Positions 20,479 through 52,944 of a stretch of 64,000 nucleotides of DNA are shown one piece after another; within the stretch, counting starts at the first letter, position 1; every line of letters begins with the position of its first letter. Made by a program: the position numbers and the translations under genes. The stretch comes from an uncultured virus (IMG/VR IMGVR_UViG_3300032007_000033) (lineage: Duplodnaviria > Heunggongvirae > Uroviricota > Caudoviricetes): IMG/VR virus record IMGVR_UViG_3300032007_000033, positions 62,001 to 126,000 of that record, one strand, 5' to 3'. The notes under the pieces were generated by a model, which saw nothing but the letters and a program-made list of their open reading frames with translations, searched no databases and had not been told where the DNA came from.

Positions 20479-21783
20479 TTATAAATTTTGAAAATATTTG
20501 CTTAATTCTTCAACCGCTTTAAGATTATTAACTCTCAATAAAATTATTCCGTTCTTTTTACAATAATCATTTTTGATTTTATCTCGGAATTGATTTGATT
20601 TTAAAAGTTTTTCCATTTCTTCATCAGTCATTTTTCCATTCCAATTTACTTTTTCAAAATGTGGAATACCGTCAGATTCTATACATAAATTATATTTTGG
20701 AATATAAAAATCAAATCTTAATTGTTGTTTATATTTACAACCTTCAAATTTTTTCTGTTCTTCAAATTCTATTTCTTTTTCATTTAAAAATTTCCTAATT
20801 GCTTCTTCGCCTTTATTTTTATTACATTTTCTACAACCTTCCCCAATTAAATGATTGGCAGGTTTTTGTGGAAAATCACCATGTTTCGGACAAGTTATAA
20901 TTACATCAATTCGATTCGTTATATAATTTACTTTAGAATAACCATAAGTTCCAACTCCATGAATTTCGTTCGCTTTTTCGATAAATTCTTCAGTTGTTAA
21001 TTTTTTAGTTCCGCCACAAATAGGACATCCGCTACCACCCAAATGATGAGATGGCGTTTGAGGGAATTCATAAAGAATGTTATGATTTGGGCAAATTATA
21101 ATTACTTCGGTTCTCATATCAATATAATTTACTTTAGAATAATCATAAGTTCCTTCTCCGTGAACTTCATTTGCTCGCTCTATAAATTCTTCAGTGTTAA
21201 ATTTAAGAAGTTCTGATAATTTTTTATATTGACATTTTCTACAACCTTCACCTTTCAAATGATTTAATGGGGTTTGAAGAAAATCACCATGTTTTAGGCA
21301 AATTATTATCACCTCAGTATTGATATTTATATATTTTACTTTTGAATAATCGTATCTTCCTATACCGTGAATTATATTTGCTCTTTCTATAAATTCTGTT
21401 GTCGTTAATTTTTTACTGCCTCCACAAATAGGACAACCTCGACCGATTAAATGTTTATTCGGTGTTTGTGGAAATGATTCGTGACCTTCAACTCTACAAA
21501 TGATTTCCACATGTTTTGATGATTTTATATAAACTACATTAGAATAATCATATCTATTACCATGTTTTCTTAAAGCCTTTCTGATAAAAGTTTTCGTCTT
21601 TTCGTCTTTGTTGGAATATCTTTCGGAAATTATCTTTTCGATTTCCTCCTCCGACAATTTTGAGTATTCAATAATTTGATTTTTCGATTCTACATTTTCG
21701 ATAGAAACGCAATTCTTACAATCACAATTTTCTTGTTTTGATTTGCCTTTGTCATACGACATAATGTGAGTTAATAAATTCAT
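20479..21783 (-). CDS. zinc-finger-repeat (x4) PD-(D/E)xK/Vsr-like endonuclease, copy 1
   Basis: Four YDYSxV..C..H..QxPxxHL..GCxxC repeats; C-terminal FDFYIP..LCIESDG..HF..RD..K. Confidence 0.8.
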   Translation of the reverse strand: MNLLTHIMSYDKGKSKQENCDCKNCVSIENVESKNQIIEYSKLSEEEIEKIISERYSNKDEKTKTFIRKALRKHGNRYDYSNVVYIKSSKHVEIICRVEGHESFPQTPNKHLIGRGCPICGGSKKLTTTEFIERANIIHGIGRYDYSKVKYININTEVIIICLKHGDFLQTPLNHLKGEGCRKCQYKKLSELLKFNTEEFIERANEVHGEGTYDYSKVNYIDMRTEVIIICPNHNILYEFPQTPSHHLGGSGCPICGGTKKLTTEEFIEKANEIHGVGTYGYSKVNYITNRIDVIITCPKHGDFPQKPANHLIGEGCRKCNKNKGEEAIRKFLNEKEIEFEEQKKFEGCKYKQQLRFDFYIPKYNLCIESDGIPHFEKVNWNGKMTDEEMEKLLKSNQFRDKIKNDYCKKNGIILLRVNNLKAVEELSKYFQNL

Positions 21784-21863
21784 AACTCGCCTCCTAATAA
21801 TTTTAGTTTTTAAGTCATTGCTAGTGACTGTGCATTAAATAGTTAATGCTCACGTAAATAGTT

Positions 21864-21939
21864 AAAAAAAGATTGAGAGGTTAGATAGAACTAGGAATAA
21901 TTCTACCAATAGGCTAGCAACCTACTGTCCCTTTCAATC
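21864..21939 (-). ncRNA. putative two-loop antisense sRNA cognate to nuclease copy 1
   Basis: Three-way junction; loop UUGCUAG matches leader loop CUAGCAA; loop AUUCCU(A) matches SD UAGGAG; U-tract after the closing stem. Confidence 0.7.
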
Positions 21940-22065
21940 AATGTGATTATACTAAATTTATTTTATTTTATCTAGCGTGGTTTTTGAATTTGGGATTGCA
22001 AACATCGTTGATTACATCCCAAGCACGTTTCATAATTTTCCTCTCTTAAAAATGTATTTATATAC

Positions 22066-22737
22066 TTATTTTTCGTGATTCTTGAACTTCTCGTCGAGCG
22101 TGTCGTACCAAAAGTTGATTCTGTCCCAAAATTCTTTGTCTTTAGTCTTTACCGAAATGTTGCCGTTCTTGGCGAACGAAACTTCAAGACCCTTCAACTC
22201 GTCAATCGGCCCACGATAATGGCCTTGTTCTCGCCAAGAATCTTGCACGAGGTACTTCTTTTTCATGTCATTGATGAATTCTGCGTCTTTATGATATTTT
22301 TCAAAAGTTCCGAAATATAAGGCCTCAAAAACTTTCGGTTGCTCAAATTCCGAATACGATTTCCATTTATGTTCGGTTGTCAAGAAGTATGGACTCATAC
22401 TCGTTTCAGAGAATGTATAACCCCATTCATTCTTCATCTTGTTGGTGTCCACTCCGTAAGGATTCTCCTTCGATGTTTCGCCCAAGGATTTTTCAATTAT
22501 TTTTAGAATGTTGTCGTAAGAAGTGCATTCCGTGGAAGGAATGGAAATGCCCAATTGCTCATTCACAATGTTGTAGTCAACCACTCTAAAATGAAGGTCT
22601 GTGTCTTTCTTTAGTTTTTCAACAATCATATATAGATAATCGCTCACTATATGGAGCGACCAATCGTCCACGATTCCACTATTCGCCAAATCCCAAAACA
22701 ATTTCTCATCAATGTCTTTAATTTCAAGCCTTGCCAT
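22066..22737 (-). CDS. hypothetical protein
   Basis: 223-aa ORF with SD. Confidence 0.6.
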   Translation of the reverse strand: MARLEIKDIDEKLFWDLANSGIVDDWSLHIVSDYLYMIVEKLKKDTDLHFRVVDYNIVNEQLGISIPSTECTSYDNILKIIEKSLGETSKENPYGVDTNKMKNEWGYTFSETSMSPYFLTTEHKWKSYSEFEQPKVFEALYFGTFEKYHKDAEFINDMKKKYLVQDSWREQGHYRGPIDELKGLEVSFAKNGNISVKTKDKEFWDRINFWYDTLDEKFKNHEK

Positions 22738-22749
22738 AATTTATTTCTC

Positions 22750-23160
22750 CTATTCAACAATCATCATCTGTAATCTGTTTTTCAATGTATTTAATTTATT
22801 GGTTGATTCAGACAACGCCATCAAAATCACATCTTTATTTTCATAATCATATTTTTTTATTTCAATGTAATCTTTCGCAACATCATTTAAACTAGCGTCA
22901 ATTTCTTCAAGAAGATTATCTCTGACTGTGGCGTTGAAATTGTAATCTAAATTAAGATTGATTCTATCCCAAGTTTTTTCGATTTTATCGATTCTATGAA
23001 GTGTATCGGAATTGTCTAAAACTTTTTCCACAACATGTTCTTGCAATTTTATTCCGCTTAAATGCAAACTGAATAAAGTCACTTCTTCGAGAAAAGCCAA
23101 AATATTGTTATAGTTTCGTTTATCCATAATTCCGTTCCTCCTACATATAATATAACACAA
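22750..23160 (-). CDS. hypothetical protein
   Basis: ORF; GGAGG SD before the internal Met; TTGACA/TATATT promoter upstream. Confidence 0.55.
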   Translation of the reverse strand: MCYIICRRNGIMDKRNYNNILAFLEEVTLFSLHLSGIKLQEHVVEKVLDNSDTLHRIDKIEKTWDRINLNLDYNFNATVRDNLLEEIDASLNDVAKDYIEIKKYDYENKDVILMALSESTNKLNTLKNRLQMMIVE

Positions 23161-23294
23161 TTATATGCGGATTGTCAAGTAAAATTATTAAAAAATGCGA
23201 GCGACAACATAAATGATTCTCGCGAGAAATTAACTTGAATTTCAATACAAACAGAGGTTGTCGCCGACAAAAATAGTTATAACTATTTACATTT

Positions 23295-24083
23295 ATGGAT
23301 ATAAATACAACATCTACGACAAATTCAAATCCTCATTTTATGACTAGAAGCCAACCGTTTTACTACGGAGAGCAGATGAAATCTTGGGCGAACACTCCGA
23401 TGTCCTACGCCATAGACATCGCCATAGAAAACCATTTGGGAAAAACCCTTGAATTTCCACTAGATAGAATAATATACGCCTCCAACGAATATTGCTTTAG
23501 GGAAAGGACTAGAAGAAACGAGGGGGAGTTGAACCTTCCTTTCTTGAATTATTACCGAGTGGGATTTGACGATGCGGACAGACCTTGGAAAAACGACTTT
23601 TCAAACAGATTCGGATTGATAGACCGCGAAAACAAATTCACATCGTTAATGGGCGGAAAGATGAGAATTTATCCCATAACCATAAGTTACGAGGCCACCG
23701 CCTTCTTTGGACAGAACAAGGACTGCGAATACGCCATGAATAAACTTTTATTCGACAGTTCCAACGAAACGATAATCAAGCCCCAAGTGGAAACCAATGA
23801 CGGAGACATTATTGAAAACGCAGGCGTCATGAATTTCGACATAGAGTACAACCCCAACTACCAAGAGAGTGATTGGCTTGAACAGAATAGAATATGGACA
23901 ATAGGTTTGGATTTCACTGTGACCACATATATGATTGGCAAGTTCGACCAAAATCCTGACGGACTGCATGTGGCGAAGAAAGTGCTTTTGGAGTTTTTCA
24001 CGGCCAAGAAACTCAACTATGAGAACTACAAGGAAAGTGAGAGAATGGAAATTCTTTTGTCCGAGTATTTCGGAACGAACTAG
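23295..24083 (+). CDS. putative tail terminator/sheath stabiliser (gp15-like)
   Basis: LPFLNYYRVGF..D..R and P.TI.YE patterns; directly upstream of the sheath gene. Confidence 0.5.
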   Translation: MDINTTSTTNSNPHFMTRSQPFYYGEQMKSWANTPMSYAIDIAIENHLGKTLEFPLDRIIYASNEYCFRERTRRNEGELNLPFLNYYRVGFDDADRPWKNDFSNRFGLIDRENKFTSLMGGKMRIYPITISYEATAFFGQNKDCEYAMNKLLFDSSNETIIKPQVETNDGDIIENAGVMNFDIEYNPNYQESDWLEQNRIWTIGLDFTVTTYMIGKFDQNPDGLHVAKKVLLEFFTAKKLNYENYKESERMEILLSEYFGTN

Positions 24084-24154
24084 TCTGAAAATTTTTAACT
24101 ATTTTAAGCATTGTGAACGCAAAAAATTTTAATTTTTTATAGGAGAATGAAGAT

Positions 24155-26017
24155 ATGGCTCAATCTTGGAGAATAAAGACTGTCGAAAAAGACAACACGG
24201 AAAAGGCTTTAACTAGCACTGCTACAATGGGCGCGACCGTAATCGTGGCTCCGAAAGGCCCAAAGGATTTTGTTAGGTTCAACAAGGGCGACACCCAAGG
24301 AATCTTGAATACATTCGGATATCCGTCAAAGGATTACCCTACAATCCAAGACGCTTTGGATGTAGTTCAAAAATGCACGATGTATGTGGCGAGTCCATAC
24401 AAAGGCGGAACTTATGGAGGAGCGTTCGTGACCAAAGATTTGGGAACGATACCGTTCAACCAAGGAGTGCAGACGAAGGAGATAAGTGATTACGCTTCGG
24501 TCGCTTTCGTGGAGCAAATCGGAATCGGAGACGGAACGACGATTTCTTACGCTTACACAATAAAGAACATCGCCAAATACAACTCGGAAAGTTTGACGCT
24601 ATCCATAGGGGGAGTCGACCATCCAATCACAATCACAAGTTCAGAAGGGATTGAAACCATAACGGACGACCCCACTGAAGGAATTTTGGACTCAGGTTCT
24701 TCTCTCAACACATCGAACGGAGAGTTGACATTGAAATTTAAAACTCCTTTGGTTAGCGGAACAACAATCTCCATCGGATATTCAATGGATTTGTCAGACA
24801 CATATTTCGTAATTTTCGACAAGAACATGCAAGAAGACGACCTTCAAGTGAAAGTCGTGGCCTCCGATGATGTGGAAGGCGCGTTCGAAATGACTGTCGA
24901 AAGATGGAATCCTGTTGATTTGGCTTACGAGGGGGTGAACGGAAGCCCATTCTTGTTCGGACTTTCGGAAACATCAAAAGACACCTACGGAGACAACATT
25001 TACATCGAGAATGTGTTCAACGACAAGCAACAGTTGTTCGATGTTCATGTGGTGAATTCAATCGTAAATACATTCGTCGACGACACCAACATGGTGAAAT
25101 TGAGCGGAGGGTCGAGAGGCGACGAGCCTAGCGGAGCGGACATAGCGTCAATCTACGACCAACTCCAAGACACGAACAAATATCAATTGAAGTTCTGCTT
25201 TGACGGAACTAACGAGAGCGAGGTAATCGCTAAATATGTGTCGTTGAGGAACAACTATCAAAAAAGATGTCGTTTTGTTTATTGCGCGGCTGATGTGGAC
25301 GGAGAGACGATTGTCAACGACCCCACTACATATAATTTCGGAGTGACCGCCAACAGAGGATTGTACCAATATTGCTTGAATTGGGGAATCCACATCGATA
25401 TCTACCAAGGAAACAACTTCAAGTGCTCCAACATGGGTTTGATAGCAGGAAGATTGGTTGACTACTTGGACAACGAGGCCAACACGACTTCCGCTCCCGC
25501 TTGGATTGATGAAAATGGTGTGGGCGGAATTCTTGGCTCTAGTATCACCAAACTTTCGCAAGAAGGAACCGCCGAGGACATCCTTCATCAGTTGGACGAC
25601 CTCAACTTCAACGCGATTGTGAACGACTTCAACTACGGTCCAATGATTGTAGGTTGGAGAACTCGCCAAGTGAAGAAGAGCGACTTCTCGAACATTCCGA
25701 TTTCTTCTCTCGCGGACACAATCATCGAGTTGATTGAGAAGAATGTCTTGCCTAGCAGAATCGGCAAGATGATTGACGAAGCCTCTTACTCCGTGGTGAG
25801 AAGCGGTTGCAACTCAATCTTGGGGACATACTCCAACCGCTTGGAGGACTACTACACTTGGTGCGACTCGGACAACAACACCGCCGAGACAAGAAACCAA
25901 GAGGAGTTGATTGTGGCGGTAGGAATTGTTCCGAAGAAGTTCGCTCGAACGATTTTGTTTGTGTTCAATTTGTTCAAGTCAGGCGATATCTCGGTTGAAG
26001 AAATGTTGAAAAAATAA
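24155..26017 (+). CDS. tail sheath protein
   Basis: APKGP...FGYP N-terminus, LSGGSRG, APAW, C-terminal CDSDNNTAETRNQEELIVAVGIVP. Confidence 0.9.
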   Translation: MAQSWRIKTVEKDNTEKALTSTATMGATVIVAPKGPKDFVRFNKGDTQGILNTFGYPSKDYPTIQDALDVVQKCTMYVASPYKGGTYGGAFVTKDLGTIPFNQGVQTKEISDYASVAFVEQIGIGDGTTISYAYTIKNIAKYNSESLTLSIGGVDHPITITSSEGIETITDDPTEGILDSGSSLNTSNGELTLKFKTPLVSGTTISIGYSMDLSDTYFVIFDKNMQEDDLQVKVVASDDVEGAFEMTVERWNPVDLAYEGVNGSPFLFGLSETSKDTYGDNIYIENVFNDKQQLFDVHVVNSIVNTFVDDTNMVKLSGGSRGDEPSGADIASIYDQLQDTNKYQLKFCFDGTNESEVIAKYVSLRNNYQKRCRFVYCAADVDGETIVNDPTTYNFGVTANRGLYQYCLNWGIHIDIYQGNNFKCSNMGLIAGRLVDYLDNEANTTSAPAWIDENGVGGILGSSITKLSQEGTAEDILHQLDDLNFNAIVNDFNYGPMIVGWRTRQVKKSDFSNIPISSLADTIIELIEKNVLPSRIGKMIDEASYSVVRSGCNSILGTYSNRLEDYYTWCDSDNNTAETRNQEELIVAVGIVPKKFARTILFVFNLFKSGDISVEEMLKK

Positions 26018-26036
26018 AAATTAAAAAAAAATAACG

Positions 26037-26367: not shown

Positions 26368-27990
26368 ATGAAAGAAACTGAAAGTAAGAAAAAGGAATTG
26401 TACTCGCTCAAGGAACTGCACAAGATGAAAGTGTATCCTACTCTCTTGGAATACCTTGGAATTGAAACTGTGAAGAAAGGCCGAGCGACATATATAACCC
26501 AAGAGTCCTTGGATAAAGCGTTAAAATTCAAGGAGGAGAATCCTAACACGAGAGTTTTGTTGCAAAAATTCGCCTTCATGAAAAAATACGGAGTCGAGAA
26601 CCCCCAACAAGCCAAAGAAATCCGAGAAAAGACGCTCTCCACAGTCAAGGAAAGGTACGGAGTCGAGAACACTTCGCAATCCCAAGAGGTCAAGGACAAG
26701 AAGGCTGACACTCTACGAAAGCGTTACGGAGAAAATGTGTCCAACCCCATGGATTGCGAGGAATTCGTTTTTAAAGTGAAGGAGAATTGGAAAAACAAGA
26801 GTCGAGAGGAGATGAATGCTCTGACCGAAAAGACGAAGAGGACATCGATGCTCAAATACGGTTTCGACAACGCTATGAAAAACAAAAATGTAGCAGACAA
26901 GTCGAAAAACAATAAAAAGGAAAACAAACTCAAGGAACTTGAAAAATACAAAGATTATGTTCCCATAAAAGAAATTTGCATGATTGTCTCAAGGTGTTAT
27001 GACAGAGTCTTGGATGTAATCAAACTTTTGGGATTGGAGATTATAGAAGTCAAGGATTCCCACTTAGTGAAAAAATCCGATTTAGATAAAATCAAAAAAT
27101 ATTTTGAAGTTGCGTCGGATTACGCTACTTCAAACGAAGAAAAAGAGTTGTTGGAATTCATCGAAACATTAACCGACGAAAAAATTATCTCCAACGATAA
27201 ATTGACGATAAATCCATACGAATTAGACATTTTCATTCCTTCAAAAAATTTGGCGTTCGAATTTGACGGAATTTACTACCACTCCAACCAATTCAAAGAC
27301 AAATTTTACCATTACGACAAAACCAAGTTGTGCGAGAAAAAAGGAATTAGATTAATTCATGTCTTTGAGGACGACTGGCGATTCAAGCGGAACATAGTGA
27401 AATCGATGATAAATGCTTCGTTGGGAATTTACGAACGGAAAATATTCGCTCGCGAATGTGAAGTCAAAAACATTTTCAATTTTGAATACCGAGATTTTAT
27501 GAACGAAAACCATCTGCAAGGATACGCTTCCGCTAGTCGTTATTTAGGATTGTATTATCGCGGAGAATTGGTTCAGTGCGTGGGAATAAAATATAACGGA
27601 ATCAACAAGACTTGGGAATTGAACCGCATGGCCACTAAACTCAACAATCAAGTCGTGGGAGGCTTTAGCAAACTATTGAAACACGCGATAGAGCGATTCA
27701 ACATCAAGGAAATGACTTCCTATGTCTTCAAGTCTTGGTTCGACGGAAAATCTTACGAGGCTTGCGGATTCAAATTCGACAAGGAATGCCCTCCGACTTA
27801 TTGGTATGTCGTGAATGGAATGAAAACAAACCGAATGAATTGGCAAAAGAAATTCATCAAGGAGAAATTCAACAAGGGTGAATTGAGGCATTACGACGAA
27901 TTAGAAAGCGAGTTTGACAACATGGCGAAAAACGGATTCAATTGGATTTGGGATAGCGGTAAAATAAGATTAAGGTATAAATCGGAATGA
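26368..27990 (+). CDS. free-standing Hef-like homing endonuclease (KYGVEN repeats, PD-(D/E)xK, GNAT-like C-terminus)
   Basis: KYGVENP repeats; ELDIFIP..AFEFDGIYYHS..KGIRLIHVFEDDW; TTGACA-N17-CATAAT promoter upstream. Confidence 0.75.
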   Translation: MKETESKKKELYSLKELHKMKVYPTLLEYLGIETVKKGRATYITQESLDKALKFKEENPNTRVLLQKFAFMKKYGVENPQQAKEIREKTLSTVKERYGVENTSQSQEVKDKKADTLRKRYGENVSNPMDCEEFVFKVKENWKNKSREEMNALTEKTKRTSMLKYGFDNAMKNKNVADKSKNNKKENKLKELEKYKDYVPIKEICMIVSRCYDRVLDVIKLLGLEIIEVKDSHLVKKSDLDKIKKYFEVASDYATSNEEKELLEFIETLTDEKIISNDKLTINPYELDIFIPSKNLAFEFDGIYYHSNQFKDKFYHYDKTKLCEKKGIRLIHVFEDDWRFKRNIVKSMINASLGIYERKIFARECEVKNIFNFEYRDFMNENHLQGYASASRYLGLYYRGELVQCVGIKYNGINKTWELNRMATKLNNQVVGGFSKLLKHAIERFNIKEMTSYVFKSWFDGKSYEACGFKFDKECPPTYWYVVNGMKTNRMNWQKKFIKEKFNKGELRHYDELESEFDNMAKNGFNWIWDSGKIRLRYKSE

Positions 27991-30715: not shown

Positions 30716-32275
30716 TTAATCCGATTCATATCTTACTTTAATCGTTCCGCAATCATATATCCTATAATATCCCAATTTTTCCATATTTCGCTCTTCAGTC
30801 AAAGATTCGTCGAATTCCTTTGGAAACTTTTTAGCGATATTCTTCTTGGTGAAATTCATTCTATAAAACCTTTCAAACTTTTTTGTATAATAATAATTCG
30901 GTTTGTTTGCCGATATTTTTTTAAATCCGCTAGACAAATAGCCATCGCCGTTGAACAACCGTCTATCGACATAAGAAATGCAATCTTTGCCATAATGTTT
31001 CATCAATTTACTAAATCCGCCGACAACTTGAGTGTTTAATTTCGTGACCATTCTAATTAACTCGTTTTCATTTTTAGTAAATCTCGACTTTCCGAAACCA
31101 ACGCATTGAACCAATTCTCCTTCATAAAACAATCCCAATCTTTCAGAAGAATTACACTCTCCTTGAATATGATTTTCGTCACAGAAGTTTCTAAATTCAC
31201 GGTCGCCAATTTCTTTCACCTCGCATTTTCTAGCGAATATTTTCCGCTCGTAAATTCCCAATGACGAACTTATTATCGATTTGACGATATTTTGCTTGCA
31301 TTTCCATTCGTCCTCAAATACATGAATCAATCTTATTCCTTTTTTCTCACACATGATTGTTTTGTCGAGATGATAATTTTTATTTTTCTGATGTTCCGTG
31401 GAGTGCCAATATAATCCGTCAAATTCTATGGCGACCTTTTTATTAGGAATATAAACATCCAATTCTTTCGGAAAAATCGTTTTTCTGTCGTTTTCTATAA
31501 TTTCGTCACAATAAATGGATTTTACAAATTTTACCAAATCTCGCTCGTCTTTTGAACTGTGCGAATAATTTTTACCGATTTTATCCAATTGTTCATTTAT
31601 TAAAGAAATGTCGCGATTTTTAATATATGGAACATTTTCAAACATAAGCAATTTTACATTCGTTTGTTCCAAACAATAATTCAATGTGCTCGCGGAATGC
31701 TTTACGCTCGGTTCAAATATTTCCGAAAACATGGAACAATCGTTTTCTTCGCAAAATTTTTCGGAAGCGTTTTTAAATCTTTCCTTCCTTCGCCTTCCCA
31801 TTTCCACATTATAATCTTCTATGCTCTTGTATCTTTCGACGATTGTTTCCTTCGCCTTGTCGGAATTTATGAAATCGCAAGTTCCGTAGCGCTTCATGTT
31901 GGTTTTGTTTCTTTTCTCAATCCGTTCCGCAGAATTTGCCTTGCTCGTCTCCGACAATTTCTTTCTAATTTCTTCAAGTTGGGATTTGTTTTCCACTCCG
32001 TATTTTAATAACGAGATTGCCTTTGATTTCTCGGCTTTGGACAAGTTCGCGTATTTCACGATTTTATCCGCCGTTTCTTGGGAGTACATTGCGACTTCTT
32101 TTTTCGCCTTGGGATGGTAGGCTTTCTTCGATTCCAAAAAAGCGGAGTATTTCCTTATGGACTTAATTTGCGAGCGAGGAATGTTGTTATCGCCTAATAT
32201 TTCATTGAGAGTTTCATAGTTTTGAGAAATTAAATTGTCATATTTTTCCGATTTATTGTTTTCCATAAGAAGCAC
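30716..32275 (-). CDS. free-standing Hef-like homing endonuclease, paralog of 26368..27990
   Basis: KYGVENKSQ; ELDVYIP..AIEFDGLYWHS..KGIRLIHVFEDEW; ELIRMVTKLNTQVVGGFSKL. Confidence 0.75.
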   Translation of the reverse strand: MLLMENNKSEKYDNLISQNYETLNEILGDNNIPRSQIKSIRKYSAFLESKKAYHPKAKKEVAMYSQETADKIVKYANLSKAEKSKAISLLKYGVENKSQLEEIRKKLSETSKANSAERIEKRNKTNMKRYGTCDFINSDKAKETIVERYKSIEDYNVEMGRRRKERFKNASEKFCEENDCSMFSEIFEPSVKHSASTLNYCLEQTNVKLLMFENVPYIKNRDISLINEQLDKIGKNYSHSSKDERDLVKFVKSIYCDEIIENDRKTIFPKELDVYIPNKKVAIEFDGLYWHSTEHQKNKNYHLDKTIMCEKKGIRLIHVFEDEWKCKQNIVKSIISSSLGIYERKIFARKCEVKEIGDREFRNFCDENHIQGECNSSERLGLFYEGELVQCVGFGKSRFTKNENELIRMVTKLNTQVVGGFSKLMKHYGKDCISYVDRRLFNGDGYLSSGFKKISANKPNYYYTKKFERFYRMNFTKKNIAKKFPKEFDESLTEERNMEKLGYYRIYDCGTIKVRYESD

Positions 32276-38121: not shown

Positions 38122-38862
38122 TTATAAATCAAACAAATCTGCATTACTTTCCTCTATCCTTTTCTTGGCGATTTCAAAATAATTTTCATCAAGTTCAATG
38201 CCTATAAAATTTCTTTTTGTGGCACAACAAGCGACTCCACAACTGCCACTTCCCATGCAATTGTCCAAAACCCATTCACCCTCGCTAGTATAGGTCTTAA
38301 TTAAATATTGTAAAAGAGCAATTGGTTTTTGAGTAGGATGTAATGAAGAATTTTGCGTGTCAGTTGAAAACACTTGAATACTTCTTGGATAACGGTCTGT
38401 GGAATCATACAAGTTTTCTCCGCAACTACCATAAACTTCACCTTGTTGATTATCTGTCCTATAAGAAACTTTTCTCTTATGCCCATGAGTCATTTGAGGA
38501 TTATATTTACATTGTTGCTTATAGAACACGCTTATTAATTCATGATTTCTCATAGGTTGTTTCTTTGCGTTGAGAAATCCCACACCTTTTACCTTATCCC
38601 AAATCCAATCGTACTTATATTCCTTTATGTTGCTCAATCTTAAATAAGATGAAAAGGGTTCTTGTCCAAACAAAACAATCGCTCCGTTATCTTTAATCAC
38701 TCTATGATATTGTTCCCATAATGGTTCAAACGGAATTACCGTATCAAAACTCGCTTGGGTAGTTCCGTAAGGTAAATCAGCCAAAATCATATCGATTGAT
38801 TTATCTGCAATTTTATTCATTTCTACAAGACAATCGCCTTTATATAAAGTAACATCTGACAT
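38122..38862 (-). CDS. DNA methyltransferase (N6/N4, beta class)
   Basis: ADLPYG, HPTQKP, VLDNCMGSGS, FIGIELD. Confidence 0.9.
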   Translation of the reverse strand: MSDVTLYKGDCLVEMNKIADKSIDMILADLPYGTTQASFDTVIPFEPLWEQYHRVIKDNGAIVLFGQEPFSSYLRLSNIKEYKYDWIWDKVKGVGFLNAKKQPMRNHELISVFYKQQCKYNPQMTHGHKRKVSYRTDNQQGEVYGSCGENLYDSTDRYPRSIQVFSTDTQNSSLHPTQKPIALLQYLIKTYTSEGEWVLDNCMGSGSCGVACCATKRNFIGIELDENYFEIAKKRIEESNADLFDL

Positions 38863-39108: not shown

Positions 39109-40254
39109 CTATAAAATTCCGTATTCTTGAAAGTATTTTGTTAATTCTTTTTCGACCGTTTTAAGATTATTAAGTCTTATTAGGATAATTCCATTATTTT
39201 TACAATAATCATTTTTAATTTGGTCTCGAAATTGAATTTGCTTAAAATTTTCCATCAATTGTTCTTCTGTCAAATTAGCACCAAAACTGCAAGGAGAAAA
39301 ATGTTGTCCACCATCAAATTCAATACAAATATTAAATTTTGGAAGATAAAAATCAAATGGAAGTGAATGTATATTTACACAATCTTTAAATTTCTTTTCT
39401 CTTTCAAAATTTATATGATTGTTCATTAAAAAGTTATATACTTCTATTTCACCTTTTGATTCATCACAAATAGGACATCCTTGACCATTTGAATGATTAT
39501 TTGGTGTTTGTTGGAATCCGCCGTGTTTTGGACAAATAATAATCACTTTCGTATGTGCATTAATATAATTAACTTTAGAATAATCATATTTTCCAAGACC
39601 TTGGACTTTGTTTGCTTTTTCTATAAATTCTGCTAATGTCATCCTGCGTTTATTTGCTCGTTTTTCAATTCCACATAAACGACATCCTTTACCTCTTAAA
39701 TGATGATTTGGAGTTTGTTCAAATTCATAAGGTCTATTTTTATTTTTACAAGTTTTACAAATAATAAGAATTTTAGTTGCATCATTCACATAAACAACTT
39801 TAGAATAATCATATAAATCTCCATAAATCAATTTCGCATTTTCTATAAATTCTTCTAAAGTTGATTTTTGTTTTTCATGACCTTGTATATTCCCACAAAC
39901 TTTACAACCTTGTCCTCGTAAATGATTGTTAGGTGTTTGTGGAAAAGGTTTATGTCCTTTAATTCTGCAAATAATTTCAACTTTTACATCATTTTTCACA
40001 TAAACTACATTTGAATAATCATATCTATCTCCATGTCTTCTTAAAGCCTTTCTGATAAAAGTTTTAGTTTTCTCGTCTTTATTAAAATATCTTTCGTTAA
40101 TAATCCGTTCAATTTCTTCTTCAGATAATTTTGGATATTCAACCGTTTGATTTTCCGATTTTGGAGTGTCAACGGAAACACATTCTTTACAGTTACAATT
40201 TTCTTGATTAATTTTTGTCTTATCATAAGACATCATTCGATTTAATACATTCAT
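39109..40254 (-). CDS. zinc-finger-repeat (x3) PD-(D/E)xK endonuclease, copy 2
   Basis: Same N-terminus as copies 1 and 3; three repeats; FDFYLP..ICIEFDGGQHF. Confidence 0.8.
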   Translation of the reverse strand: MNVLNRMMSYDKTKINQENCNCKECVSVDTPKSENQTVEYPKLSEEEIERIINERYFNKDEKTKTFIRKALRRHGDRYDYSNVVYVKNDVKVEIICRIKGHKPFPQTPNNHLRGQGCKVCGNIQGHEKQKSTLEEFIENAKLIYGDLYDYSKVVYVNDATKILIICKTCKNKNRPYEFEQTPNHHLRGKGCRLCGIEKRANKRRMTLAEFIEKANKVQGLGKYDYSKVNYINAHTKVIIICPKHGGFQQTPNNHSNGQGCPICDESKGEIEVYNFLMNNHINFEREKKFKDCVNIHSLPFDFYLPKFNICIEFDGGQHFSPCSFGANLTEEQLMENFKQIQFRDQIKNDYCKNNGIILIRLNNLKTVEKELTKYFQEYGIL

Positions 40255-40336
40255 AAATCTAATCTCCTATAAAAATTATTTTTACGTTGTTAGTACCAAC
40301 ATCACATTAAATAGTTAATGCTAAAAATAGATTGTT

Positions 40337-40416
40337 AAAAAAATTAAAGAGGTGTGGTTGAACGAGATTAGGAATTCAACCAATGTATAAGGTACTAACT
40401 TACACTCACCTCTTTA
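40337..40416 (-). ncRNA. putative two-loop antisense sRNA cognate to nuclease copy 2
   Basis: Closing stem UAAAGAGGUG/CACCUCUUUA; loop UUAGUAC matches leader loop GUACUAA; loop CUAAUCUC matches GAGAUUAG at the RBS; own TAACTATTT at 40425-40433. Confidence 0.75.
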
Positions 40417-40456
40417 TAAATAATAAATAGTTAATAATTAATTTTCAATCCTAATT

Positions 40457-42008: not shown

Positions 42009-43661
42009 TTATTCCTCGTCTTTCTTGTCCTTGCTTTTGTCGTCGCCCTTGGCTTTACCCTTCGTGTAAGGCTTGCAAAGTTTGTCGAAGACTTCCCAAA
42101 ACTTGTTGGCCTTCTTGTTGAACTTCGCGTCGCTCGCGTTGCACCAATCAACCCAAGCGTTCAAAAGTTCATCGTCTCCGCTAGCGATGTCAAGAATTTT
42201 ATCGAAGTTCTTGGGGTCAATCTTGTCCTCAGACTTCAATGTTTCCTCAATCATGTCCAACATGTCGCCCAAACCTTCCACGGATTCCTTCAAAGACTCT
42301 TGAATTCCGTTGTCCTCCAAAATGTCCTTGAAAGCGTAATAAACGACATCTTTCTTGAAAGACACATCGTATTCCAACAAACCACCCTCGCCTTTAAGAA
42401 CATCGGTAACGACATAAGCCCATTCTTTTGACGGAAGTTGGCCGAAAATGAAAGTCTTGTCCTTTCCGTTATTTTTGATGATTAAATTCTTGCTAAACTC
42501 ATGCTCGATGAAGCCGTATTTGGTGTTGTATCCAAAATGAAGATTATCCACATTCACATAAGGCTCGTATTCTTCATTGTCTTCCTTCAAGGATTCGTTC
42601 AAATCCTTCTTATATTTGTCCAAGAAAGCCTTGATTTCCTCGTCGGTGCTATCGTCTCCGATTTTCTTCAATTCCGCCTTCACATATTCGAATCTTTCGG
42701 ACTCGTCCATGTCTTTTGCCACATTCCAAATGTCAGTCGGCAAAAATTCAAGTTTTTCCTTCAACTGAACCACTGTTCCTTTAGGAACGACCTCTCCTTC
42801 AATCAAATAATTTTTCGTCAAAGTTATCTTTTTCATTCCTTTATAATTAGATTTGACTCCCAATTCGTCATTCATGTTGTATTCGAGGCCTTTTCCATCA
42901 ACATCCAACTGATGTAATAAAATCAAGTCTCCGTTTTTATCCAAGTACATCGCATCCGTTGCATTGTCAAAAATATACTGTTGATTGAACTTGTTTCCCT
43001 TAAAAGTCATTACTTTGTTTTTTATCTCAAGTTCAATTCCAGCCAATTTAGCCAACTCAACACAATCTTCCTCGTTGTCATAAGGGTCGATTGCATCATA
43101 CCTACTGTTCGGTGTCTTTTTCATTCCTTTCTTCTCCTTAATATCCATAAATTCGAAATTGTTTTTATATCCGCAAGCGTTCAATATTTTCACGCCTTCA
43201 TTGTATGTATAAGGATATATGTTGTTCACCCAAAGAATGTCGAGTTTTTCCTCCAAGTCCTTCAATTGCTCTTTTGTCAAAGAACCCCCTTTCTCTTCAT
43301 ACACTCCGATATAGAACTCAACATCGTCGCAAACCCTATCCAACCTAACATAATCCGCATAACTTCTTTCCATCAATCTTCTAAATTCGTCCGCGCTATG
43401 CGGAACCTTGCTTTTCCATACATTTATCTTGTGGGCTTCGTTGTCTTCGTCCGAAACCATTGACAAATATGTGCCGACTTTAGACGAACGACATTTTCCA
43501 TGACCTTCTCCGTCCTTAGCCTTAATTCGTCTGCAAGCCTTCTTAATGGCCTCAATGTCGCCCTTCACATTGTAGGACTCTCCGCCTTCAATCGAAATTA
43601 TCCAATTGTCTCCGTCAAGATGCTTTATCGACATTGGGATTAATCGTCTGTTATCTTCCAT
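42009..43661 (-). CDS. multi-domain probable internal head (poly)protein
   Basis: Start at 43661 (SD GGAG); internal NESLKE/QESLKES linkers and MKKITLTKNYLIEG motif. Confidence 0.55.
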   Translation of the reverse strand: MEDNRRLIPMSIKHLDGDNWIISIEGGESYNVKGDIEAIKKACRRIKAKDGEGHGKCRSSKVGTYLSMVSDEDNEAHKINVWKSKVPHSADEFRRLMERSYADYVRLDRVCDDVEFYIGVYEEKGGSLTKEQLKDLEEKLDILWVNNIYPYTYNEGVKILNACGYKNNFEFMDIKEKKGMKKTPNSRYDAIDPYDNEEDCVELAKLAGIELEIKNKVMTFKGNKFNQQYIFDNATDAMYLDKNGDLILLHQLDVDGKGLEYNMNDELGVKSNYKGMKKITLTKNYLIEGEVVPKGTVVQLKEKLEFLPTDIWNVAKDMDESERFEYVKAELKKIGDDSTDEEIKAFLDKYKKDLNESLKEDNEEYEPYVNVDNLHFGYNTKYGFIEHEFSKNLIIKNNGKDKTFIFGQLPSKEWAYVVTDVLKGEGGLLEYDVSFKKDVVYYAFKDILEDNGIQESLKESVEGLGDMLDMIEETLKSEDKIDPKNFDKILDIASGDDELLNAWVDWCNASDAKFNKKANKFWEVFDKLCKPYTKGKAKGDDKSKDKKDEE

Positions 43662-43707
43662 AATATTTTCTCCGAACAAATTGAGTTTGCTTAAAATAGT
43701 TAAAGTT

Positions 43708-47325: not shown

Positions 47326-47357
47326 AATTTTATTCTCCTCTTATAGGTTTTCTTCAA

Positions 47358-47690: not shown

Positions 47691-47739
47691 AATTTTATTT
47701 CCTCCTACTGTTAAACCGTTTCCTTGATGAATAAAATAG

Positions 47740-48048: not shown

Positions 48049-48105
48049 TAAATTAATTTATTTGTCAAGGAAAATTATCAACAATTTTTTATAACTATTT
48101 GTCTT

Positions 48106-48294: not shown

Positions 48295-48296
48295 AT

Positions 48297-48983
48297 ATGA
48301 TTTGCTTTGATGATAAAGAATTGCAAGATTTTACCCTTTCTCTTTATAATAAATATTTTTATGATTTACCTTTTAATCTTAAAAATATAAAATTCGCTCA
48401 TATGAAAGAAGATTCTGTATTGGGATACACTCATTCTGAATCAAAGAAAGGAAAACAACTTATTAATGATATTGATAATGAAATTACAAGCAATATATTT
48501 ATTTCAAAAGGATACATTGGAATAGATTGTACTTCTACGGTATTACATGAGATGTGCCATGCTTATGTCGATACTAATTTTTTTGATATTGAATGGGAAA
48601 ATAATGCAAATCATAAAGGCTTATGGGTTGAAATAACAGAACTAATTTCTAAAAGAAGTGGAATTAATTGTTTTTGGTCTGCGGATATTGATACAAGAAA
48701 AGTAACTGCAAAAGATGTCGTTGAAAAAACTATGGAAAAATCAAAACAACTGTATAATTTTTTCAACAAAATAGACGATATTCATTGTCAACATGATATA
48801 AAAACAATGATGAAATATGAAGATACGAAAGAATTCCTCCAACTTTTAATGGAAGAAAAAGATTCTGATTGGAAAAAATATTGGAACAGATTAAAAGAAT
48901 GGGAGAACGCTGATTTTGAATATTGGAAGAATAGCAAAGAAGGCGTTTCTTGGCTATTCTATATTGCTTTTGGCGATTTATAA
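48297..48983 (+). CDS. SprT-like zinc metalloprotease
   Basis: TVLHEMCHAY (HExxH) plus downstream HKGLW. Confidence 0.75.
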   Translation: MICFDDKELQDFTLSLYNKYFYDLPFNLKNIKFAHMKEDSVLGYTHSESKKGKQLINDIDNEITSNIFISKGYIGIDCTSTVLHEMCHAYVDTNFFDIEWENNANHKGLWVEITELISKRSGINCFWSADIDTRKVTAKDVVEKTMEKSKQLYNFFNKIDDIHCQHDIKTMMKYEDTKEFLQLLMEEKDSDWKKYWNRLKEWENADFEYWKNSKEGVSWLFYIAFGDL

Positions 48984-49709
48984 TCCAAAAATATCTTCTT
49001 TAAAATTATCTACATAATTTCCATTATGTTCTATTCTGTTCTTCGCTATCTCAAAATACTTTGGGTCTATCTCGCAACCTATAAAATTTCTATTCAACAT
49101 CTTGCTTGCTATTCCGCAACTTCCAATTCCCATAAATGGGTCGATTACGGTGTCGCCTTCATTCGTTGAATTTTCCACAAGAATCTTCATCAATTCAATC
49201 GGCTTTTCGGTGTCGTGCAAATTGTGACCGTCCTTGTCCTTCAATTTCTTGATTGGAATCGAAAGGATGTCGGAAGTTCCGCAATTGTTTATGGGTCGGT
49301 CGCCTCCCTTGCGGAACAAACAGATGTACTCGAATTGGTTCATATAATAGCGACCGCAAATCTTGGATTGCTTATCCCAAATCAAGCACTTCACGAAATG
49401 GAAACCGACCTTTTCCGCCTCGTTCAACATCTCTCGAAGATTGATGTTGTTTATCATTATGTAGCAATGGGTTCTTTCCTTCAAAATGCGATAAAAATGC
49501 GGAAGGTAGTCGCTAGGCTTGAGTGAATTGTTTTCGAATATTTTTCCTTTCCTAGCGATATCGGATTTCCAATATCCGCTCATCGTGCCACATCCTCCGC
49601 GAGAAGTAACGGGATAAGCGACATCGGAGCAAACTAAGTCTACCGAATTATCGGCCACCTCCCCCATCACCTTCAAACAATCTTCGTTGAACAATTTTAT
49701 TTCAGACAT
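48978..49709 (-). CDS. DNA methyltransferase (N6/N4, beta class)
   Basis: SDVAY (variant motif IV), HDTEKP, VIDPFMGIGS, FIGCEID. Confidence 0.85.
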   Translation of the reverse strand: MSEIKLFNEDCLKVMGEVADNSVDLVCSDVAYPVTSRGGCGTMSGYWKSDIARKGKIFENNSLKPSDYLPHFYRILKERTHCYIMINNINLREMLNEAEKVGFHFVKCLIWDKQSKICGRYYMNQFEYICLFRKGGDRPINNCGTSDILSIPIKKLKDKDGHNLHDTEKPIELMKILVENSTNEGDTVIDPFMGIGSCGIASKMLNRNFIGCEIDPKYFEIAKNRIEHNGNYVDNFKEDIFGL

Positions 49710-50718
49710 TTCCTTCCTCTCTGTACCCAATTTCATAAATCCTCTTCGACTTCAACCCTTCCGCGTAATCCTTCATGCTCTCCACCTCATCTGCGTTTAT
49801 TCCGCAAGCGTTGGAGTGTCCACTCGCGTGGTTTAAATTCAACAAGTCGAACTCTCTGCTACGAAGGCTTATCTTCGGCTCGTCTTGGTCGTAGTCGTTC
49901 ACAATCACGCAGTAGTCGAGTTTCTTGTATTTCTCCAAAATCCTAGACGCTATCGCGCTCACCTTGCTCTTGCAAGAGAAGACGCAAAAGTACCTTCCTT
50001 GTGAGTCTTTTCTCGTGCTAATTTCCTTGGACGCGTTTCTTATCAAGTTCTCGAATATCTCGTTCTCTTTGTTGATGTCGCCTTGTATCTTCTCCGTCTC
50101 CCAAGCCACGAACTTGAAGTCGTTCATGTTCTGCGTTTTCCAAACCATCGAGTTTATGAATGTCTCGTAGGCGGATATTCTGTCGGTAGGATTGGACTTC
50201 AAAATGTACCACTTTGCGGACGAGTAGAGCAACCGATTAAGTTTATCGGCTTCGGAAAACAAAGGCGACCCTTTCTTGTATAAGTCGTATGTATCGGTCA
50301 ACTCGACGATATAATCCGACACCTTGTTTCCTTCATAGCCTTGCGACTTTAGCCACTCATAGTACAACTTCGTTCCGCACTTCTCGTTGTCAAATATGTA
50401 CTCCGCGTTGGGATAGGACTTCGTGAATTCCTCCATCGGCTCCTTGACGCTTTCGTGGTGGTCTATGACAAGGCACTTGATTCCTTTTTCCTTGATGATT
50501 TCCTTCGCCCTATCGTTGGGGCTAAAGTCCGTGTACACCACAGTTTCGTACAGTCCGCTAGACAAGTCGGAATTCTCTAATTCCTCTCCATAGTTGGTCA
50601 TGATTTCCTTGGAATAGTTTATCTGAAAAAATCTGTTGAGGGCGATGGGGATGCTGCCGTCGCAATCTATGTGGCTTATGAATAACGCTTTGTCTAAATT
50701 AATTTCATTCAACTTCAT
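49702..50718 (-). CDS. DHH-family phosphoesterase
   Basis: SHIDCDG, YTDFS, IDHH, SLRS, SGHSNACG. Confidence 0.85.
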   Translation of the reverse strand: MKLNEINLDKALFISHIDCDGSIPIALNRFFQINYSKEIMTNYGEELENSDLSSGLYETVVYTDFSPNDRAKEIIKEKGIKCLVIDHHESVKEPMEEFTKSYPNAEYIFDNEKCGTKLYYEWLKSQGYEGNKVSDYIVELTDTYDLYKKGSPLFSEADKLNRLLYSSAKWYILKSNPTDRISAYETFINSMVWKTQNMNDFKFVAWETEKIQGDINKENEIFENLIRNASKEISTRKDSQGRYFCVFSCKSKVSAIASRILEKYKKLDYCVIVNDYDQDEPKISLRSREFDLLNLNHASGHSNACGINADEVESMKDYAEGLKSKRIYEIGYREEGNV

Positions 50719-50789
50719 ATAAAAATATCCTTGCAGTTTGTTTCAAGGCAAGGATAGCACAATGAAAATTATTTTTCAAGCGTTTTGGA

Positions 50790-51263
50790 TTATTTTTCTT
50801 CCAATTCTTTTATTCTCTTGTCGCAAATTTCAATAATTTGTTCATAATCAGAAACACGGTCTTTTACATTCGGATAAAGAATTCTTGTCAGAATAACAAC
50901 ATCATCGGAAGTCAAATCATAATCTTCAAGCATTTCGCCCAAAGTAACGTCTTTTGGTTCAAGATTTTCAATAGGAAAAACATTCTCGTTATTCTGAAAT
51001 TGTCTAATACGCTCAAGAGCAATATGCTTCATTTTTTTATAATCTAGAATTCTTGGGTCAGTTTGTTTAGTTCTTAAAGTTCTTTTTACCAAATCACAAT
51101 CAAATCCATTGTTAATTCTAAACTTTATCCATATATCCCATATTTGATAACGATGTTTATTGTAGTCACTACTTCCTTCGACAATATTTCTAACTTCATT
51201 TACATCAATCATATTTATATCTCCATTAAAATTTAATATAAAAATTTTATAAATTAAAGTCAA
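50790..51263 (-). CDS. hypothetical protein
   Basis: ORF; SD before the internal Met. Confidence 0.5.
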   Translation of the reverse strand: MTLIYKIFILNFNGDINMIDVNEVRNIVEGSSDYNKHRYQIWDIWIKFRINNGFDCDLVKRTLRTKQTDPRILDYKKMKHIALERIRQFQNNENVFPIENLEPKDVTLGEMLEDYDLTSDDVVILTRILYPNVKDRVSDYEQIIEICDKRIKELEEK

Positions 51264-52810
51264 TACAAATTTTCAAAATAATTCATAAGTTTTTCTTCTA
51301 CATTTTCATCATAACGAATTCGTAAAAGATTCATTCCTTTATCTTTACAATAATTATTTTTAATTTGGTCATGTTTTTGAATATATTCAAAACTTTTTAA
51401 TGTTTCCTCTTTTGTTGATTTTTTAAAACTAGTAGGAATAAAATGTTGTATTCCATCATATTCAATACATAAATTATACATTGGTACATAAAAATCAAAC
51501 GGAAGAGAGTTTGAATCTTTACAATCTTTAAATTTCATCTGTTCTTCAAATTTAATACCATGTTCCGTTAAGAAATTTCTAACTTTAATTTCACCAATAT
51601 AATTTCTACATTTAGGACATCCACAATCTAATAAGTGGTCGTTTGGTCTTTGTGGAAAAGGTCCGTGTTTCGGACAAATTATAATAACTTCAGTTTGATA
51701 ATTCACATATTTCACTTGAGAATAATCATAAGTTCCAACTCCATGAAGTTTATTTGCTCTTTCTATAAATTCTTCCAAAGTCAATTTTCTATCATTTGCT
51801 AATTTTTCATATGCACAGTCTAAACAACCTTTACCACTTAAATGATTAGATGGTGCTTGTGGAAAATCACCATGAATTGGGCAAGTTATAATTACATCTG
51901 TACTATTATTTATATAATTTACTTTAGAATAATCATATTTATTTCCGTGAATTTTTCTTGAGCGTTCTATAAATTCTTCCAATGTTAATCTTCGTTTATC
52001 TGCTCGATTTTTAATTCCACAAAGTTTACAACCGTTACCTGATAAATGATGAGATGGAGTCTGTGGAAATTCATAAGGTGTTTCGTGATTATGACAAATT
52101 ATAATTACTTCAGTTTGATTATTTACATAATTGACTTTTGAGTAATCATATCTTCCGATTCCATGCACTTCATTCGCTTCTTCTATAAATTCTTCTACTG
52201 TCTTTCTTCTTTTATCCGCCCTTGTTTTCATTGCACACAAATCACACCCATGTCCTTGTAAATGAAGAAATGGTGCTTGAGGAAATTCATAAGGAACATC
52301 ATGGTTATGACAAATTATATTCACATCAGTATAACAATCAACATATTTAACTTTAGAATAATCATATTTTCCCACTCCATGTTTTTTATTCGCTTTTTCT
52401 ATAAATTTTTCAGTTGTTAATTTTCGTTTATTGCTTCGTCTTTCAATGGCACAAATTTTACAACCTTTACCTTGTAAGTGATTTGAGGGTGTTTGTGGAA
52501 ATGGTTTATGACCTTCAACTCGACAAATAATTTCTATATTTACGCTATCCTTTATATAAATCACATTAGAATAATCATATCTATCACCATGTTTTCTCAA
52601 CGCTTTCCGAATAAAAGTTTTTGTCTTTTCATCTTTATTAAAATATCTTTCGTTAATAATCCGTTCAATTTCTTCTTCAGATAATTTTGGATATTCAATA
52701 ATTTGATTATCTGATTTTACATTTTCGGCAGAAACGCATTCTTCACAATTACAATTTTCTTGATTAATTTTTGTCTTATCATAAGACAAAATACGAGTTA
52801 ATGAATTCAT
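51260..52810 (-). CDS. zinc-finger-repeat (x5) PD-(D/E)xK endonuclease, copy 3
   Basis: Same N-terminus; five repeats; FDFYVP..LCIEYDGIQHF..LLRIRY. Confidence 0.8.
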   Translation of the reverse strand: MNSLTRILSYDKTKINQENCNCEECVSAENVKSDNQIIEYPKLSEEEIERIINERYFNKDEKTKTFIRKALRKHGDRYDYSNVIYIKDSVNIEIICRVEGHKPFPQTPSNHLQGKGCKICAIERRSNKRKLTTEKFIEKANKKHGVGKYDYSKVKYVDCYTDVNIICHNHDVPYEFPQAPFLHLQGHGCDLCAMKTRADKRRKTVEEFIEEANEVHGIGRYDYSKVNYVNNQTEVIIICHNHETPYEFPQTPSHHLSGNGCKLCGIKNRADKRRLTLEEFIERSRKIHGNKYDYSKVNYINNSTDVIITCPIHGDFPQAPSNHLSGKGCLDCAYEKLANDRKLTLEEFIERANKLHGVGTYDYSQVKYVNYQTEVIIICPKHGPFPQRPNDHLLDCGCPKCRNYIGEIKVRNFLTEHGIKFEEQMKFKDCKDSNSLPFDFYVPMYNLCIEYDGIQHFIPTSFKKSTKEETLKSFEYIQKHDQIKNNYCKDKGMNLLRIRYDENVEEKLMNYFENLY

Positions 52811-52880
52811 AATAATTCTCCTATAATTTTAATTTTTTAGTCCATGCCAAGACTTTTACATAATAAATAGTTAAATTATT

Positions 52881-52944
52881 TTAAAAGAGTTAGAGGTTCA
52901 ACGGAGAAGTTGAACCTCAATAGGTGGCATCCTACTGTCCTCTT
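52881..52944 (-). ncRNA. putative two-loop antisense sRNA cognate to nuclease copy 3
   Basis: Loop AUGCCA matches leader loop UGGCAU; 10-bp hairpin GAGGUUCAAC/GUUGAACCUC with loop UUCUCC matches SD GGAGAA. Confidence 0.75.

Follow-up and report, generated by a model that had tools for sequence, protein, structure and literature searches.

A homing endonuclease gene needs expression that is very low and well timed, and the solutions known to us are one-off local hairpins in T-even phages. In the T-even genes for I-TevI, I-TevII, I-TevIII, segB and Aeh1 mobE, the ribosome-binding site (RBS) is masked on long transcripts and a late or middle promoter lets a short transcript escape (PMC2988022). 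In the C4 RNA of P1 and P7, it is the b' loop that covers the RBS; specificity comes from the a' loop, which acts at an upstream site (PMC5320573). The element considered here is a composite RNA leader that precedes three nuclease genes (copies c1, c2 and c3) in a 64,000-nucleotide (nt) stretch, referred to as the window, of the uncultured Caudoviricetes virus IMGVR_UViG_3300032007_000033 (positions 62,001 to 126,000 of the 135-kb record). Judging from its base pairing, two loop contacts within this leader very likely repress translation of the nuclease.

As shown in Table 1, the same order of elements is kept in c1, c2 and c3: (i) a three-way junction (3WJ) with a closing stem and two hairpins (HP1 and HP2), (ii) a U-rich tract, (iii) the motif TAACTATTT, (iv) a small leader hairpin, (v) the Shine-Dalgarno sequence (SD) and (vi) the ATG. 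This order, with the positions and loop sequences of the three copies, had been given in a preliminary description of the window and was found to be correct on the minus strand. In each copy the 3WJ is the minimum-free-energy fold, and none of 200 shuffles was as stable; the leader regions alone are of ordinary stability (z -1.0 to -1.7). The leader hairpin, with a stem of 5-6 bp, is located 39-42 nt 5' of the ATG, and its whole loop is the exact reverse complement of the HP1 loop of the same copy. The SD lies 15-30 nt 3' of the leader hairpin, within an A-rich stretch. Copies c1 and c3 also have GGACAGUAGG..CCUAUUG in common.

The contact between HP1 and the leader loop was analyzed in 23 instances of the family to which these leaders belong. 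The HP1 loop was delimited by six closing pairs, its exact reverse complement was sought in the next 130 nt, and 2000 shuffles per instance served as the null. An exact complement was found downstream in 20 of the 23 instances, compared to 0.26 expected; the two-loop pairing and covariation noticed in the window hold. All 20 complements form the full loop of a hairpin with a 5-9-bp stem, and all 20 junctions are on the same strand as the gene and directly upstream of it. The 23 instances include 21 distinct HP1 loop sequences, and the loops differ among all copies within each genome. Among six test junctions outside the training set of the covariance model described below, five passed the same test (L083, L084, L086, L089 and L094) and one (L082) failed. 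These results exclude chance as the source of the loop-loop complementarity.

In other contigs, relatives of the window nucleases are preceded by this leader too, with loop pairs of their own: UCGUCAC/GUGACGA (L003), UCGUCAU/AUGACGA (L006) and UUGCGAG/CUCGCAA (L010). Within two sets of close relatives the pairs are separated by a single compensatory step, namely L003 from L006 and L010 from c1 (UUGCUAG/CUAGCAA). Covariation is expressed here as the count of exact matches; a whole-leader MAFFT alignment put the loops out of register. Non-cognate loop combinations gave no exact match, except between near-identical copies. The cognate loop duplexes of c1, c2 and c3 have energies of -7.4, -5.5 and -6.9 kcal/mol, compared to -0.3 to -5.1 kcal/mol for non-cognate ones. 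Orthogonality of HP1 among the window copies is thus good but not perfect, because the c1 loop reaches -5.1 kcal/mol on the c3 target, the strongest non-cognate kiss.

The HP2 loops are pyrimidine-rich and mirror the SD of their own gene (Table 1); further pairs are AACUCC/GGAGUU and ACCUC/GAGGU. The mean HP2/RBS duplex energy was -6.6 kcal/mol for cognate pairs, -4.65 for non-cognate pairs and -3.8 for shuffled loops, and the cognate mean was reached by none of 20000 permutations (n=15, including close relatives, and with HP2 of L010 wrongly delimited by the script). This pairing is therefore real, but it is weaker than the HP1 kiss, modestly specific and not orthogonal.

Table 1. Nuclease genes, leader elements and other features of the window (window positions, except for the last row)
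Feature	Position	Strand	Evidence and remarks
Nuclease 1, 434 aa	20479..21783	-	DUF4379 (Pfam); PHROGs 559/681/9084/7140; predicted fold; tandem treble-clef zinc fingers and C-terminal Vsr-fold domain (Pfam, fold)
c1 SD and ATG	21781..21796	-	UAGGAGG; UAGGAG pairs with UUCCUA of HP2 (one G-U)
c1 leader hairpin	21813..21829	-	loop CUAGCAA, 21818-21824, reverse complement of HP1 loop
c1 palindrome	21832-21849	-	GCATTAA-CTAT-TTAATGC; encloses second TAACTATTTA motif of linker
c1 linker	21836..21870	-	U7 tract 21864-21870; two TAACTATTTA motifs, 21855-21864 and 21836-21845
c1 3WJ	21871..21939	-	fold z -4.16; model R1 match 73.7 bits, E 4.6e-18
c1 HP2	21885-21906	-	fold; anti-SD UUCCUA, 21892-21897
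c1 HP1	21907-21927	-	fold; loop UUGCUAG, 21914-21920
c1 sigma-70-like match	21946..21974	-	TAGATA-17-TATAAT; consensus scan, pattern match only; ends 7 nt before junction
Nuclease 2, 381 aa	39109..40254	-	Pfam, PHROG
c2 SD and ATG	40252..40267	-	GAGAUUAG, 40259-40266, pairs with HP2 loop, -11.3 kcal/mol
c2 leader hairpin	40284..40302	-	loop GUACUAA, 40290-40296
c2 linker	40305..40343	-	U7 tract 40337-40343; TAACTATTTA 40308-40317 within palindrome CATTAA-CTAT-TTAATG (40305-40320)
c2 3WJ	40346..40415	-	fold z -5.08; R1 match 55.1 bits
c2 HP2	40355-40382	-	fold; CUAAUCUC, 40364-40371
c2 HP1	40385-40405	-	fold; loop UUAGUAC, 40392-40398
c2 sigma-70-like match	40420..40448	-	TTGAAA-17-TATTAT; overlaps TAACTATTTA 40424-40433; directly 5' of junction
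Nuclease 3, 516 aa	51260..52810	-	Pfam, PHROG
c3 SD and ATG	52808..52821	-	GGAGAA, 52816-52821, pairs with UUCUCC of HP2
c3 leader hairpin	52839..52854	-	loop UGGCAU, 52844-52849
c3 linker TAACTATTTA motif	52864..52873	-	
c3 3WJ	52885..52944	-	fold z -4.41; R1 match 60.9 bits
c3 HP2	52894-52917	-	fold; loop UUCUCC, 52903-52908; also flagged terminator-like
c3 HP1	52918-52937	-	fold; loop AUGCCA, 52925-52930
Empty site orthologous to insertion in G002	~43658-43696		
Homing endonuclease gene	26368-27990	+	phrog_3339
Homing endonuclease gene	30716-32275	-	phrog_3339; TAACTATTTA motif upstream
DNA methyltransferase gene	10824-11600	-	
DNA methyltransferase gene	18834-19493	-	
DNA methyltransferase gene	38122-38862	-	
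DNA methyltransferase gene	48978-49736	-	
DNA methyltransferase gene	53215-54072	-	
DNA methyltransferase gene	54020-54841	-	
RtcB-type RNA ligase gene	1050-2300	-	phrog_1075, E 1e-127
TnpB/IS605-type transposase-like gene	3550-4890	+	
TnpB/IS605-type transposase-like gene	58933-60228	+	
Cluster of four TAACTATTT-like motifs	58873-58928	both	
Fourth junction (L075/L009)	18696-18760 of contig G000	-	R1, 48.6 bits; HP1 loop UCGUUAC

A pattern scan for the conserved HP1 stem yielded 17 loci, comprising 14 full leaders, two identical chance matches in coding regions and one degenerate copy; a looser DNA pattern lacking the GGAC prefix matched 43 loci and gave no new instance. The 3WJ consensus derived from 16 aligned junctions (56-70 nt) contains 19 pairs, 16 of which show compensatory changes. 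At one position of HP1, G-U pairs occur in 13 of the 16 sequences, which fits an RNA of this strand. A covariance model (R1) found exactly four copies in the present genome, i.e. the three nuclease cassettes and a fourth copy outside the window, and in eight further virus records it found six junctions absent from the training set. Pfam analysis of the downstream open reading frames (ORFs) identified GIY-YIG domains in five and NUMOD1/3 without GIY-YIG in four; beyond the three window genes, nuclease or NUMOD domains are present in 10 of 16 downstream ORFs. The leader thus precedes GIY-YIG, NUMOD and Vsr-fold nucleases and is not, as the preliminary description had supposed, private to the nuclease family of the window.

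The strands joining the helices were also inspected. Those of the GGACAG-type junctions (c1 and c3) read GAC and UAA (e.g. 21928-21930 and 21881-21884), a pattern that may correspond to the UAA/GAN junction motif; c2-type junctions are without it. HP1 was considered as a tRNA-like structure and dropped, ARAGORN having reported 0 tRNA genes.

The repeats and stems could in principle be signals in the DNA itself, for instance an operator or a site for a nuclease or for recombination. At the DNA level, complementary loops amount to an inverted repeat, the internal motif of c1 and c2 sits within a palindrome, and I-TevI of T4 binds an operator over its own promoter (PMC2988022). Such a reading is nevertheless most improbable: G-U pairs in the stems are tolerated on this strand only, the anti-SD/SD relation is meaningful only in RNA, and the sharing of the leader by unrelated nuclease families makes a protein-specific DNA site unlikely.

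No Rfam 15 family matched the 64 kb at gathering score, and a permissive scan (E up to 10) of three regions gave 2, 7 and 8 matches, all with E >=1.9 and none to C4, c4-2, c4-a1b1 or CI. No description of such a leader was found in the full-text literature, subscription-only papers and supplements lying outside this search. The RNA family is absent from Rfam and would combine known principles (RBS masking, kissing loops and an embedded promoter) in a new way; the junction is a candidate for a new Rfam family.

The fourth junction of this genome is an orphan. It has the U-tract, the TAACTATTT motif and an SD homologous to that of c2, and is without leader hairpin and nuclease; the ORF that follows (198 aa) has no Pfam or NCBIfam match, and no GTAACGA partner hairpin was found in the 135-kb or 160-kb record. 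In record G008, a leader (L091) precedes a 17-codon ORF only, followed by a TnpB-like gene with Cas12f1-like TNB and OrfB_IS605 domains. The same loop codes recur before different nuclease genes in different records, UUCCAG/CUGGAA in L092 and L017 and CUACUAA/UUAGUAG in L090 and L086; it therefore seems that the leader module passes from gene to gene. One copy is held by a bacterial metagenome-assembled genome, which was the sole match among the 151 genomes of its family; in this set of genomes, then, the element did not turn up as a prophage feature.

The mobility of the cassettes was assessed by comparison with G002, a 71.6-kb syntenic relative. A junction-leader-nuclease block of ~1.5 kb in G002 is missing from the orthologous site of the window, where only a stop codon, a TTTAACTATTTTAAG motif, an SD and the next ATG are present. 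The G002 insertion starts ~8 nt before the junction, and AACTATTT motifs flank both sides. Conversely, the c2 block and the adjacent methyltransferase gene are absent from G002, which raises the possibility that methyltransferase and nuclease move, or are selected, jointly. At the c1 site of G002, the orthologous junction (L082) is kept and the leader hairpin and nuclease are missing. The mobile unit therefore begins with the junction, which can outlive the nuclease.

These borders also bear on the idea that the leader is an insulator or shuffling module, in which junction and U-tract would form a terminator and the next motif a promoter, as at a PeSL-like boundary (PMC4122927). Such a module would insulate a selfish gene and offer homology for cassette exchange, the loop pairing being secondary (e.g. 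mRNA stabilisation or backup silencing). In its favour are the AACTATTT motif on both cassette flanks, where the indel junctions fall, the presence or absence of cassettes between syntenic phages, the orphan junctions next to a promoter motif in ordinary intergenic regions, and the terminator-like HP2 of c3. It is distinctly improbable, however, as it leaves the 20 exact loop matches in 23 instances (21 sequences) and the anti-SD loops unexplained, and R1 finds the junction almost only before nuclease genes.

Analysis of the linker indicated that, in this phage, TAACTATT resembles a promoter. The genome contains 38 copies (14.6 expected from base composition), of which 21 lie 15-75 nt 5' of an SD, ATG and ORF, compared to 6.7% of random positions; one copy precedes the tail-sheath gene. 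The 10-mer motif with one mismatch occurs 31 times (8.0 expected). Across the family, a promoter-like motif, AACTAT or TATAAATA, is present in 18 of 22 linkers and ends ~8-10 nt before the leader hairpin; TATAAATA, the T4 late-promoter consensus, was found in two contigs. The internal motif of c1 and c2 sits in an extended palindrome, (G)CATTAA-CTAT-TTAATG(C), which could be an operator (compare I-TevI over its late promoter) or an extra hairpin predicted by folding in read-through RNA.

In the proposed mechanism, a composite RNA leader would travel with each nuclease gene as one mobile cassette, starting with the junction. The arm-1 loop would form a 6-7-bp kissing complex with the small hairpin 25-49 nt 5' of the start codon and carry the specificity, and the kiss would hold the pyrimidine-rich arm-2 loop on the SD region, blocking 30S binding. 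The clamp would form on transcripts that enter the cassette from its 5' side, whether they are read-through products of the preceding gene or start at a promoter directly in front of the junction. A shorter, translatable mRNA without the junction would start from the promoter-like motif that separates junction and hairpin, which is TAACTATTT in this phage clade and TATAAATA in two other contigs. The timing logic would be that of T4 homing endonuclease genes, here achieved by long-range contacts between loops, as in the P1/P7 C4 RNA. A cis-acting lock of this kind, with an internal promoter giving an unlocked transcript, is the reading favoured here, and is moderately probable on the sequence data. 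Linkers of 3, 6, 11 and 18 nt without promoter motif occur in four of the 22 family members; in those four the junction must therefore be part of the mRNA, which favours action in cis.

Several observations weigh against this cis lock. Two intact junctions, the fourth copy of this genome and L082, have no partner hairpin, nor has the degenerate L096. For 11 of 15 HP2 loops a non-cognate RBS with better energy exists, and in four members HP2/RBS pairing is weak (-2.3 to -4.7 kcal/mol); specificity therefore resides in HP1, and the earlier view that each RNA is specific to its own cassette stands for HP1 and falls for HP2. Of five other leader-carrying records, three show no genome-wide enrichment of TTAACTAT, and for these it is unproven that the linker motif is a promoter. 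In c2, c3 and the orphan copy, the junction is preceded by a motif of the same kind as that inside the leader; this weakens the timing model, since two promoters of a single class would be active at the same time. The sigma-70-like matches of c1 and c2 are positioned such that transcription would begin with the first base of the junction, and U7 tracts follow the closing stem directly in both copies; together these fit a discrete small RNA (sRNA) gene. Finally, the internal transcript would keep both target sites and be open to repression in trans.

A discrete trans-acting sRNA would have its own promoter and an end at the U-tract, and the free ~70-nt RNA would bind a separate nuclease mRNA by two loops and titrate its translation. 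Besides the points just given, the junctions of c1, c2, c3 and the orphan copy have a sigma-70-like or phage-type promoter motif 5-10 nt upstream, the second promoter-like motif would yield the mRNA that keeps both target sites, intact orphan junctions persist, and the loops vary among the copies of each genome. Fully complementary 6-7-nt loops are, moreover, a hallmark of antisense kissing systems, and C4 works in this way (PMC5320573). The reading remains rather doubtful, since the junction is always directly upstream of its target and on the same strand, in four of 22 members there is no space for the mRNA to start separately, a promoter-like motif lies within 40 nt upstream in only seven of 22, and the orphan loop has no target in 160 kb. 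In addition, the terminator scan flagged none of the closing stems, and a branched closing stem is atypical for an intrinsic terminator.

A cis-acting long-range switch, offered in the preliminary description beside an sRNA, thus fits at least as well as an sRNA acting in trans, and the immunity or addiction role proposed there found no support. Action in cis and in trans would not be mutually exclusive; C4 itself is cut from a transcript carrying its targets (PMC5320573), and a junction freed by U-tract termination or processing could act in trans too. It is unlikely, if conceivable, that the junction is a free-standing riboregulator whose loop sets a 6-7-nt address for each cassette (at least 21 seen), in trans as well as in cis. 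If so, the family would be a natural library of mutually orthogonal kissing-loop repressors, and could silence the same incoming cassette in mixed infections, an RNA-based homing immunity.

The three nuclease genes are of the free-standing homing-endonuclease type. The paralogs share 58-61% pairwise identity, contain 3-5 treble-clef zinc-finger repeats each (Pfam DUF4379) and all match PHROG families named HNH, homing or intron-encoded endonuclease; a PDB sequence search and NCBIfam gave no match. The C-terminal 120 residues were folded in silico (predicted local distance difference test score, pLDDT, 87.9), and Foldseek aligned the domain with Vsr (1cw0; TM 0.69 on query, probability 1.00) and I-Bth0305I (3r3p; TM 0.55-0.67, probability 0.98), with weak E-values (3e-3 and 0.1) and 12-14% identity. 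E51, D53 and H57, candidate catalytic residues in an I-E-x-D-G-x-x-H-F pattern, are invariant in four sequences. The C-terminus is thus predicted to have the Vsr-like catalytic fold of the Vsr and I-Bth0305I (EDxHD) endonucleases, from which the window nucleases differ by an N-terminal part made of the tandem zinc-finger repeats.

The tail sheath of the virus is only ~25% identical to that of any cultured phage. Megablast with 4 kb of the window gave no match to cultured phages, and sensitive blastn with the three leader regions gave short chance matches only; a match in Enterococcus phage SAP6 was dropped, as it sits at the end of a DNA polymerase gene. Two more homing endonuclease genes of the window are without the junction leader (Table 1). 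The six DNA methyltransferase genes are all on the minus strand, and several adjoin nuclease cassettes. One of the two TnpB/IS605-type genes is preceded by four tightly spaced TAACTATTT-like motifs on both strands, and an RtcB-type RNA ligase gene is present, although no tRNA gene was found in the window.

If the favoured cis lock is correct, one transferable RNA module serves three or more unrelated nuclease families across many uncultured phages, with a specificity that is a short loop-loop code evolving by compensatory changes. The family would be a clear natural case of a tertiary RNA contact whose covariation is very strong, and a source of ready-made orthogonal RNA-RNA pairs for the study of kissing-loop control of translation. 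Since the junction marks the 5' border of the mobile cassette, it helps to delimit such elements in metagenomes.

Fully complementary loops of 6-9 nt nucleate RNA-RNA recognition in OxyS-fhlA, ColE1 RNAI/RNAII and R1 CopA/CopT, and the RBS is covered by one of the two OxyS-fhlA sites. OxyS, RNAI and CopA are trans-acting or antisense-encoded RNAs of bacteria and plasmids, and to our knowledge none of these pairs is a homing endonuclease leader. Type I toxin-antitoxin systems, which pair a gene for a small toxic peptide with a divergent or overlapping antisense RNA, are not matched either: the targets here are nucleases of 381-516 aa and the RNA is co-oriented and upstream.

The PeSLs of T4-like phages consist of a simple stem-loop and an early promoter, and we know of no loop-to-loop or anti-SD code described for them. 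The leader resembles them as a structured element with a promoter motif at indel borders between related phages (PMC4122927), but its junction is branched and no terminator was called at the closing stems.

The resemblance to the P1 C4 RNA pointed out in the preliminary description is borne out, one loop addressing the RBS and the other an upstream site that gives specificity. Both RNAs have a closing stem and two hairpins and are of similar size (~77 nt for C4, 60-70 nt here), both are encoded just 5' of the target in the same transcription unit, and in both there are compensatory differences between relatives, here by sequence only (PMC5320573 for C4). C4 is matured from a precursor by RNase P and acts in trans. 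The present junctions differ in that they have no match to the Rfam C4 model, even at E up to 10, that the upstream target, too, is the loop of a hairpin, which makes the contact a loop-loop kiss, and that homing-endonuclease-type nucleases take the place of the antirepressor or immunity operon targeted by C4.

In Aeromonas phage 25, the hairpin of seg43(25) lies beside, not over, the RBS (PMC2988022), and a search of this phage record with R1 gave no match. With the T-even genes the window copies share a leader of a homing-endonuclease-type gene and, in 18 of 22 family linkers, a promoter-like motif. The T-even leaders are simple local hairpins containing the RBS (PMC2988022), whereas the RBS here is free of local structure and would be reached by a distant 3WJ via two loop contacts. 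The element described here is, in contrast to those hairpins, a conserved and transferable RNA family serving several nuclease families.

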